Virus record (IMG/VR): IMGVR_UViG_3300000651_000003
Coordinates: 33,309-97,308 of that record
Source: a virus
Length of the DNA stretch: 64,000 bases
Direction: 5' to 3' (one strand)
A program made the position numbers and the translations under genes. The notes under the pieces were generated by a model. It was not told where the DNA came from, searched no databases, and worked only from the letters and a program-made list of their open reading frames with translations. Below, piece by piece: positions 19,638-38,493 of the stretch (the first letter of the stretch is position 1; each line of letters opens with the position of its first letter).

Positions 19638-19907
19638 ATGAGAATCAGAATTGACGCAGAAGTAGAGGGAACCGAACAGGTTCAAACGTACAACGGAGAA
19701 TCTCCCACGGAAGCAGTTGCTTTCTTAGATAAACTCGAAACCGAGAAGACATTCGTCCTATCATGTAACATGAAAAATGTGAAGCCCGGGGGAGAATTCT
19801 CGTTGGCTCGTAGAGTGACAGGTAAAGATTGTGCGGCGCTACTGTCGGACATAGTTTCGTGGTTGCAGGAACACGGAGCTCCCAAACCAGAAGCACCGAA
19901 GGAATAA
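19638..19907 (+). CDS. hypothetical protein
   Basis: AAGGAG RBS, tightly packed ORF. Confidence 0.55.
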   Translation: MRIRIDAEVEGTEQVQTYNGESPTEAVAFLDKLETEKTFVLSCNMKNVKPGGEFSLARRVTGKDCAALLSDIVSWLQEHGAPKPEAPKE

Positions 19908-20537
19908 ATGGAATCTCTCGTAACAACAGTTACGGCAGCGGAACCAATCCGCAATCCTCCTACGCCTTCAAAGTTAGAAGGCATGCAGATTACGAGGTCT
20001 GGGCGTAGCTGGTGGGCTGTTAGATATCAATCGGGACGAGTTATCAATGAATGGGCAACGCTACAATTCACTAAACTATTCACTCCTCTAGGACCTGCAC
20101 CTACATCTCGCTGGGAAGACATTTCAAAACAAAACATCAATGGTCTCTATCTGTTTTGCCCGAATGGTAGAGTGGGTGCACTTGAAGGTGATTACGAGTA
20201 CTTCCAATTGAAGGTGGGTGGTGCTCATGCGGTATTCTCATTTGGGAATCGGCCAGTAAAGGTAAAGGACAAGCATATTAGAGCTCATATCATAGGCAGG
20301 GTAGTAGGCGAAAATGGCGAGTGCGAATGTTACGCTTGGGAGTATCAGGAAACACCTTATTCAACATTCTTTTGCCCTCGGTGCGGAGGATGTGGTAGAA
20401 AAAGAAAATCTTGCCCGGGCTGCGGTAGCCAAGAATTGCGGCGAGACCCACTAATACTTTTTCGAGATAATGTGACCAACATGGCCTATGAGCAGATAGG
20501 GACGATTTCTCTGGGCCATCATACAGGAATCAGGTAA
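19908..20537 (+). CDS. hypothetical protein with CxxC zinc ribbon
   Basis: CPRC...CPGC near C-terminus. Confidence 0.55.
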   Translation: MESLVTTVTAAEPIRNPPTPSKLEGMQITRSGRSWWAVRYQSGRVINEWATLQFTKLFTPLGPAPTSRWEDISKQNINGLYLFCPNGRVGALEGDYEYFQLKVGGAHAVFSFGNRPVKVKDKHIRAHIIGRVVGENGECECYAWEYQETPYSTFFCPRCGGCGRKRKSCPGCGSQELRRDPLILFRDNVTNMAYEQIGTISLGHHTGIR

Positions 20538-20539
20538 TT

Positions 20540-21292
20540 GCGCTTTCTGACGATCGAACGATCACCAAGGTGTTTAAGTATGTTCCACAATGGGGCGGGG
20601 GCAGAAAGAACTGAGATTAGCTCAACAGGATACGGTGCTTGGCGAGTGACTCTTCCCGTGAATCGTTCGGTCTTCTGAGAGCGTACAGCCGGATAAAGCC
20701 GCTCCCGGCCTAATCTATAGAAAGGACTCACTGATGGTTAGGTCAGTGATTGATTGAGAGGCCGACATCACAGGGATTGTTAGGCGAAAAAGGATGAAGA
20801 AGAGAGCGAAGTATGACAGCCAAAGCCTGCCCCGGTGGGAAAGGGCGTAACGACCTTGATGGCCTTGTCGGGGCAGGAAATTAAAATCGATGCTTTGTGG
20901 TGATTGAATTTGGCAATGACCAGAGAGCAGCCAACTCTCAAAGAATCAGGTACGCGAGCACGGCCTGATGCTTCGCTTGAGTGAGGTGAGCGAAGGTGAT
21001 CTTTTACAACTCAGCGTTGTGCTGAGTTCTAAGTGGTTATAATTTACCACGATTTGGCGTGTCCGGGTGTTGCAACACTCGGCCTATTTCAAGCCGGGGC
21101 AAAAGAAGATGCTGCTTTAGGGACTCCACATCGCTGTCTAATGCTATCGGTAAAGAACTGGGTATGTGTTTTGATTGAGGGCGACTGAGTCTTTATCGGT
21201 AAGCATTCGTTTTTAGTTGAAAGACTAAAAATTGTCTTAAGCGTAGTTGGGAGCGGTAGGTGGAGAATGAAGCATTTTGCCGCTCTCAACTT
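20540..21292 (+). ncRNA. large structured non-coding RNA candidate (GOLLD/ROOL-like size and context)
   Basis: ~750 nt with no credible ORF in a gene-dense region; more than 12 helices with G-U pairs on + strand, e.g. GATCGAACGAT/ATCGTTCGGTC, CCTGCCCCGG/TCGGGGCAGG, CTTCGCT/AGCGAAG, AACTCAGC/GCTGAGTT, ATCGGTAAAGA/TCTTTATCGGT, TTTTTAGT-TGAAAG-ACTAAAAA, AGTTGGGAGCGG/CCGCTCTCAACT. Confidence 0.7.
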
Positions 21293-21309
21293 CAAAAAAA
21301 AAGGAGTTT

Positions 21310-21759
21310 ATGAAAACACCACTGATTATAGTTGCAGTAGTGATAATGATTCTCGCGACGTTAGCGGGAATTTCTCTTGCTCGTAAACGAGCTTCACTGC
21401 TACATATTCCAAGATTCGCGATCACATATACTAAGGAAAACGGACTCAGCGCGATGTCGCCAATGCCGTGGTCAGACCCTGAAGAGTTAGTAATTGATGT
21501 GAATTTCGTTGACTACAAGCCTCACTGGATTGCATTTGAGTTTGCAGGTGATGAGCTGCGGGAAACGTTAGTTCAAGCATATGACAAAACTGGATCTTTG
21601 ATAGAAACTCAACAAATCACCAAGCTAGACAAGGATAGGCGACTGACTGCACAACAAACAGGCTACAGGCAGTACCGGTTCACTCGCCTAAGCGGCCCCG
21701 ACGTTCGCATTACAGGAATCTTTTTTGATTCAGTACCACCAGAACAAAGACGAAGGTAA
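21310..21759 (+). CDS. N-terminally membrane-anchored hypothetical protein
   Basis: AAGGAG RBS before ATG 21310; hydrophobic N-terminal helix. Confidence 0.65.
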   Translation: MKTPLIIVAVVIMILATLAGISLARKRASLLHIPRFAITYTKENGLSAMSPMPWSDPEELVIDVNFVDYKPHWIAFEFAGDELRETLVQAYDKTGSLIETQQITKLDKDRRLTAQQTGYRQYRFTRLSGPDVRITGIFFDSVPPEQRRR

Positions 21760-37845: not shown

Positions 37846-38493
37846 TTAGTCACAATCGCAAGACATTGACTCAAAATCGCTGACGATAGTCTCAACCAAA
37901 TCACTGTTGTCGGCCTCTTCAGCTTCGAACTCATGCTCGAACTCCTCGTGGCCCTTGGTGTGGCGATCATCGCCCTTTGCCATTGAGCACTTGCTACCGC
38001 TACCGTCGACTACGCCGCATTCGGCATCTTCATCCTCTGCGCCATCAGGCCAGTCAGCGTTGTCGATTGCCGAGTCAAGTTCGTCAATGAATGAGTCGAG
38101 CGCTTCAACCCGACCTTGCACTAACTCCCCATTCTGCCCGTTCTGAAATGACTCTGGCATGTTGTTGTAATTCTCGTCGAACTCATCCTTGAGAGACTCC
38201 GCATCATCTTTTAAAGACTCAAGGTTGGATTTAAAATCCTCGAACTCCATGTCTCTGCGAAAATCGTCGCAGTAGTCACCCAGTCTCTCGTTGAGTTCGT
38301 AAACTCGACCAATCTGGCCCTGAGTCAGTTCGCTGGCCCGGGGTGAGCAACCCGGAGCCATGCAGCGAAACTGTTTTGCCGAGTTGCGGAATTGCCACGA
38401 CTTATATTGACTGCCGGGCTGAATCTGAATCCCACAATGCCCACATTTGTACTCACCTCGAGTACTCTTAGTCTTGATAACTATTCTAGCCAT
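37846..38493 (-). CDS. acidic coiled-coil protein with N-terminal zinc finger
   Basis: CGHC; NMPESFQ motif; AAGGAGG RBS. Confidence 0.6.
   Translation of the reverse strand: MARIVIKTKSTRGEYKCGHCGIQIQPGSQYKSWQFRNSAKQFRCMAPGCSPRASELTQGQIGRVYELNERLGDYCDDFRRDMEFEDFKSNLESLKDDAESLKDEFDENYNNMPESFQNGQNGELVQGRVEALDSFIDELDSAIDNADWPDGAEDEDAECGVVDGSGSKCSMAKGDDRHTKGHEEFEHEFEAEEADNSDLVETIVSDFESMSCDCD

Follow-up and report, generated by a model that had tools for sequence, protein, structure and literature searches.

The interval between the tail and fibre genes

The window, meaning the whole 64,000-nt stretch of DNA analysed here, comprises bases 33309-97308 of IMG/VR record IMGVR_UViG_3300000651_000003, a virus record of 97,308 bases with a completeness of 87% (CheckV). 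Between two tail-region genes of this virus lies a 772-nt interval (20538-21309, + strand; window coordinates unless stated otherwise), referred to below as the gap. The module 5' of the gap is that of a siphovirus tail, encoding a tape measure protein with an SLT domain, a DUF2460 protein, a phiJL001 gp84-like hub, a Phage-tail_3/Rcc01698-like protein and a 1274-aa LVIVD-repeat protein. Fibre-like genes, including one for a 521-aa Big_7 protein, lie 3' of the gap, and DnaB, a beta clamp and Pol A are encoded further downstream of these. The gap and the genes and signals that border it are as follows.

19908-20537, +: upstream gene, 209 aa, ending in TAA; conserved tail-region family with a Cys4 zinc-ribbon insertion
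20538-21309, +: whole non-coding, structure-rich stretch, from open-frame, stop-codon and folding analyses
21296-21312, +: A-run, AAGGAG ribosome-binding site and ATG of the downstream gene, from reading of the sequence
21310-21759, +: downstream gene, 149 aa, hydrophobic N-terminus, without family match

A preliminary description of the window had singled out this interval as the sole large gap in a tightly packed genome, and this was borne out by analysis of all six frames. Within 20538-21309, 699 nt are free of any open frame of at least 80 codons, which is unique in the 97-kb record, the second-longest such region measuring 220 nt. Each frame of the gap contains 8-19 stop codons and every frame has all three kinds, by which recoding of stop codons was ruled out. 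The G+C content is 0.48 for the gap vs 0.50 for the genome. The same description had remarked on the absence of flanking tRNA genes, and ARAGORN indeed found neither tRNA nor tmRNA in the 64-kb window. A further 476 nt without an ORF of at least 45 aa (greedy ORF cover) were observed at 37971-38446.

The upstream gene is judged complete because the C-terminus of its product (…LGHHTGIR) lines up with the C-termini of 31 homologues; the protein has 78 homologues in a collection of 5.8 billion proteins. As the upstream gene ends like its homologues and the downstream gene starts at an ATG behind a ribosome-binding site of its own, an intron was ruled out. The gap resembles group I and II introns in presenting several hundred structured non-coding nucleotides inside a phage gene block, but differs from them in that both flanking genes are complete and no intron model matches. 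A pseudogene derived from the neighbouring genes of relatives was also rejected, tblastn of those proteins leaving no trace in the gap. Neither a promoter-like site nor a convincing terminator-like site was found inside 20538-21309, and for this reason co-transcription of the gap with the late operon is probable, with transcription presumably proceeding rightward through both. The Cys4 zinc-ribbon insertion of the 209-aa upstream protein is basic (20372-20440, CPRCGGCGRKRKSCPGCG) and is present in 3 of the 32 aligned family members, namely the phage's own protein and its closest homologues, P0002 and P0004.

Strand-specific folding and predicted domains

Folding of the whole gap stretch yielded -275.9 kcal/mol on the + strand (z -6.94 relative to dinucleotide shuffles) and -213.8 kcal/mol on the - strand (z -3.85). 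A fold no better than such shuffles had been named in the preliminary description among the results that would speak against the RNA, and the + strand folds far better than chance. On the proposal made there that G-U pairs fix the orientation as +, 37 such pairs were counted in the + strand fold vs 17 in the - strand fold. In sliding windows of 150 nt, z was negative all along 20750-21300 and near 0 to +1 within the flanking genes, and control gaps of similar size in relatives (L016, L018, G002) folded no better than chance, with z between -0.1 and -1.5. A cruder test, a genome scan in which the folding energies of 970 400-nt windows were corrected for composition by regression, placed the gap's best window 3rd (z -3.0). 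The structured stretch was divided into the following predicted parts, all on the + strand.

20539-20685, +: D1, a 147-nt domain with a 25-bp interrupted closing stem (20539-65/20658-85; p 0.87-0.98) and a branched top
20691-20823, +: weakly structured linker (z -0.2) with one strong hairpin, 20728-35/20742-49
20826-20877, +: D3a, a 10-bp G+C-rich helix (20826-35/20868-77) with a cap hairpin at 20841-57 and a UAA loop, from folding
20891-21058, +: D3b, a six-hairpin cluster in two branches (p 0.8-1.0; z -4.9)
21064-21081, +: 7-bp hairpin with a UGCA loop, from folding
21140-21207, +: D4, a 68-nt long hairpin rich in G-U pairs (z -6.2 on + vs -2.4 on -)
21209-21232, +: D5, an A/U-rich 10-bp hairpin with a GAAA loop, from folding
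21245-21291, +: D6, a 16+2-bp hairpin, from folding, just 5' of the A-run and ribosome-binding site of the next gene

When the blocks were folded separately, with 100-200 shuffles per block, D4 gave the z values listed above on the two strands, D1 (20533-20690) gave z -2.6 on + and -0.15 on -, and the 3' block as a whole (21140-21295) gave -7.2 on + and -3.1 on -. D6 (21243-21293) gave -5.6 on + and -3.9 on -, D3b was equally structured on both (-4.9 on +, -5.1 on -) and D3a (20824-20880) reached -3.0 on +. The linker block 20691-20800, at z -0.2 on +, is unstructured. These values bear on the idea that the gap works at the DNA level, as a replication origin, packaging site or recombination site. 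Such a role would suit the large size of this intergenic region and its many inverted repeats, but the strand asymmetry indicates RNA, the gap lies within the tail operon and distant from the terminase and replication genes, and iterons, tandem repeats in excess of chance and an A+T-rich block are all missing from it; a DNA-level element is thus considered very unlikely.

Most of the helices named in the preliminary description were recovered in the full-length fold, at pair probabilities of 0.8-1.0. These comprise 20552-62/20662-72, which lies inside the 25-bp stem of D1, the linker helix 20728-35/20742-49, the hairpins ATCAGGT/GCCTGAT, GTGGT/ACCAC, CTTCGCTTG/TGAGCGAAG and AACTCAGC/GCTGAGTT, the helix 21140-56/21190-207, the GAAA hairpin 21209-32 and the 16-bp stem 21245-91. 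Three did not reappear. The long-range helix 20766-79/20888-902 is absent from the full-length fold, as is the GAGAG/CTCTC hairpin, the bases of which pair elsewhere at probabilities of 0.96-1.0. The helix 20826-35/20868-77 is the minimum free energy structure of the isolated piece only; in the full fold 20828-36 pairs instead with 21093-101 (p 0.94). The two are competing helices, each favoured in another context, and the 5' strand of D3a accordingly has 21093-21101 as its alternative partner. A purine motif, GGGGCA(G/A)(A/G)A(A/G), was observed three times in the gap (20598-20607, 20870-20879 and 21096-21105), together with a single CUGCCCCGG (20827-35) able to pair with the second or the third copy; motif copies sharing one partner in this way might serve for structural switching or as a site for protein binding that is present more than once. 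The gap has one GNRA loop only, and no tertiary motif was recognised in it.

Occurrence in other strains and in relatives

The gap, or pieces of its sequence, occurs in five soil metagenome runs (X1-X5), and soil runs of 2025 belonging to three studies contain pieces that match the window exactly; none of the sequencing runs listed was an RNA run. What is shown for the gap is that it is non-coding, that it folds strongly and specifically on the gene strand, and that it is kept in other strains with indels and one swapped module. The most extensive variant is an 8.3-kb contig from run X2 (soil, 2012) that is approximately 96% identical to the window. Over 2.7 kb of comparison four 1-nt indels were found, at 20909, 20980, 21067 and 21275; all four are in the gap, and the approximately 1.9 kb of flanking coding sequence has none. 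In the predicted fold two of them lie in hairpin loops and one in a 1-nt bulge, all unpaired, and the fourth lies in a stem; at least three of four at unpaired positions has a chance probability of about 0.1, and the pattern is hence only suggestive. Two soil runs besides the record analysed here have an extra T in the stem of the 21064-21081 hairpin. In X2 the segment 20732-20860 is replaced by 177 other letters; it covers the portion of the gap that folds no better than chance and overlaps the linker (20691-20823). From run X5 a variant read of only 30 nt was obtained, in which the hairpin 20841-57 with its GCGUAACG top is kept through one compensatory double change, A-U to U-A, and in which four inner pairs of the helix enclosing this hairpin would be lost.

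The indels of X2 also bear on whether the gap encodes one or more small proteins. ORFs of 46-70 codons do exist in it, but none combines an ATG with a good ribosome-binding site, the X2 indels together frameshift every ORF of at least 34 codons within 20780-21295, and the translations have no PHROG match and are absent from a collection of 15 billion proteins. Small protein genes are consequently regarded as hardly credible, the ORFs being most probably spurious. The first 40 listed of the 67 substitutions between X2 and the window all lie upstream of 20325. The most variable region between the strains is an 89-aa ORF two genes upstream (19638-19907; 25 substitutions in 270 nt), and the first 417 nt of the upstream gene (19908-20324) carry at least 15 substitutions; strains at approximately 96% identity are too close for selection to be discernible.

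Beyond these strains, distant blastn and megablast searches with the gap region against 50,697 phage records returned nothing, neither flanking protein had a tblastn match in this set of records, and by these searches no cultured phage is similar to the region at the DNA or the protein level. Scans of IMG/VR with the upstream gene, its family alignment, the 521-aa gene, the portal and the 1274-aa tail protein gave no gap homologue, yielding distant loci only and a second record of the same phage, and three pattern scans of IMG/VR derived from the RNA were empty. The second record (L054, IMGVR_UViG_3300000893_000005) is 29.9 kb long, has a 100% identical portal gene and would end at approximately window 10900, inside a 1500-aa tail protein and short of the gap.

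Loci carrying the upstream gene family at 33-46% identity were fetched from JGI metagenomes (45), IMG/VR (one) and Dehalococcoidia MAGs (four). At the 28 of these that were measured downstream of the family gene the next gene begins within 0-230 nt, a gap scan of the approximately 50 fetched loci found no large gap at this position, and nhmmer and BLAST with the gap gave no hits in them; a gap flagged by script in L051 proved to be an ORF. Covariance models of 21140-21295 (R1) and 20891-21058 (R2) recovered only themselves in 369 kb of loci, and R1 gave one chance-level hairpin match in 151 Dehalococcoidia-class genomes. A DNA search of 401 Chloroflexota genomes returned short matches at about chance frequency, and no structured gap was found in a complete 73-kb relative with a 40% identical portal. 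The closest homologues of the upstream protein in ENA and Logan are 46-55% identical (P0002-P0009, the P0003 contig being 106 kb long). Since the fetched loci show no large gap at this place, the one described here is interpreted as a lineage-specific insertion at the junction of conserved tail and variable fibre genes. Among 185,579 species genomes all four matches to the upstream family were on Dehalococcoidales or Dehalococcoidia MAG contigs (L048-L051), which may offer a clue to the host range of the phage group.

Restriction to one lineage would also suit a non-functional remnant, such as a scar left by the loss of a gene cassette or the residue of a mobile or palindromic element that has decayed, tolerated because the junction is prone to recombination and with its hairpins inherited or fortuitous. 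The internal segment swapped between strains and the several indels fit such a history, D1 looks like a small inverted-repeat element, and a 10-nt direct repeat (GAATCAGGTA) is found at 20527 and 20943, although by estimate about one such repeat is expected by chance per 1 kb. DNA palindromes would however be symmetric, and in D1, D4 and the 3' block folding is far poorer on the - strand than on the + strand. No protein remnant was detected, no part of the gap is repeated elsewhere in the phage genome, and useless DNA would be expected to vanish from a genome this densely packed. A remnant is accordingly judged improbable. The lack of a second copy in the genome also ruled out a DGR template or dispersed repeat.

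Candidate functions and comparison with known RNAs

The whole window was compared by cmscan with all 4227 families of Rfam 15, a set which we take to include GOLLD, ROOL, OLE, HEARO, raiA and the group I and II introns, and no match reached the gathering score. Permissive-filter rescans of the gap and its halves produced only noise at E 0.7-10 to eukaryotic snoRNA, miRNA and lncRNA models, and OLE, HEARO, raiA and the other large RNAs of Rfam had no covariance-model match in the gap. The preliminary description had proposed a large, densely structured non-coding RNA on the + strand without flanking tRNA genes, possibly a member of the GOLLD or ROOL type. The first part of this is supported by the closed frames and the folding z; the second finds no support, there being no Rfam match even at E 10 and no tRNA in the window.

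GOLLD is an RNA of approximately 800 nt found in phages and prophages, often with neighbouring or embedded tRNA genes, and its 5' half varies between strains. The gap is similar in size class, in being phage-borne, in its many helices and in having one part that varies between strains, but it lacks an adjacent or embedded tRNA, a recognised shared motif and a covariance-model match at E<=10. ROOL measures approximately 580 nt and often lies in prophages close to tRNA genes. The likeness here is that of a large phage-associated RNA with a multi-hairpin fold, which for the gap is known from prediction alone, and the difference is again the missing Rfam match and tRNA neighbourhood. The gap thus appears to resemble GOLLD and ROOL only as a large structured phage-borne candidate RNA, and its RNA would be the first example of a class of large phage RNAs so far undescribed, rather than a GOLLD or a ROOL.

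A simpler role would be that of a cis-acting intercistronic spacer, in which processing by RNase III/E and stabilising hairpins at the 5' and 3' ends make stability and translation in the upstream tail genes independent of those in the fibre block, D6 and the A-run providing a protected leader for the gene at 21310 and no free functional RNA being made. The gap shares its strand with both neighbours and contains nothing resembling a promoter or a strong terminator, 9 nt separate the end of D6 from the A-run and AAGGAG, and the gap is placed exactly at the module junction, where relatives have 0-230 nt. The RNase III sites between the genes of phage T7 are single hairpins of approximately 60 nt, and the long imperfect duplexes between same-strand late genes (D1, D4 and D6) are reminiscent of them. 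However, approximately 15 helices over 770 nt far exceed what a spacer needs in a genome otherwise tightly packed, and the approximately 50 relatives manage without a gap at this junction. A spacer of this kind is considered rather unlikely.

The reading that we tentatively prefer is that the gap specifies a functional, discrete and lineage-specific structured RNA of several domains, co-transcribed with the late genes and belonging to an undescribed class. The absence of protein traces and the closed frames support its being non-coding, and the strand asymmetry of D1, D4 and the 3' block supports its acting as RNA. According to this reading an insert of approximately 0.77 kb between the conserved tail and variable fibre genes of an uncultured soil siphophage would give rise to a chain of largely autonomous modules, consisting of D1, a variable linker, D3a, the six-hairpin cluster D3b and D4-D6. 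The near-perfect duplexes of D1, D4 and D6 (18-25 bp) may define the ends of the RNA by being trimmed from the late transcript by a double-strand-specific RNase, or may alternatively protect a stable RNA. The product would be active as RNA in its own right and in trans, for example as a scaffold, sponge or decoy.

A preprint (bioRxiv 10.1101/2024.12.08.627333) describes ROOL and GOLLD as forming homo-oligomeric RNA-only cages by cryo-EM. A more far-reaching and doubtful form of our preferred reading is that the gap gives the first representative of a new class of multi-domain phage RNAs of approximately 0.75 kb, produced late, excised from the tail-operon transcript and acting freely. Such an RNA might be a self-assembling scaffold like ROOL and GOLLD or a decoy against host defence, and it may partner with the basic zinc-ribbon insertion of the upstream protein. 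The evidence is drawn from one lineage, in which near-identical strains supply the only homologues found, and makes the RNA a candidate: the gap is genuine and unusual, and what it offers is a good, well-supported candidate for a new large phage RNA as opposed to a demonstrated family.

Few large structured RNAs borne by phages, such as GOLLD and ROOL, are known, and an unrelated further example would, if true, enlarge the set from which the role of such RNAs can be worked out. Its context would be that of a soil phage with relatives on Dehalococcoidia MAG contigs, in a tail-fibre block with no tRNA neighbours.

A second structured region of the genome was observed approximately 22 kb before the start of the window (L052:10929-11411, genome coordinates), where 483 nt lack an ORF of at least 75 aa. 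It has the strongest fold of all 400-nt windows genome-wide, on both strands (z -3.8 and -3.9), with an inverted repeat that is long and perfect, GAGCGCAATTCAGAGCGGCCC … GGGCCGCTCTGAATTGCGCTC, at its core. As the fold is equally strong on either strand, this region resembles a DNA-level palindrome (origin or operator) or a bidirectional terminator.
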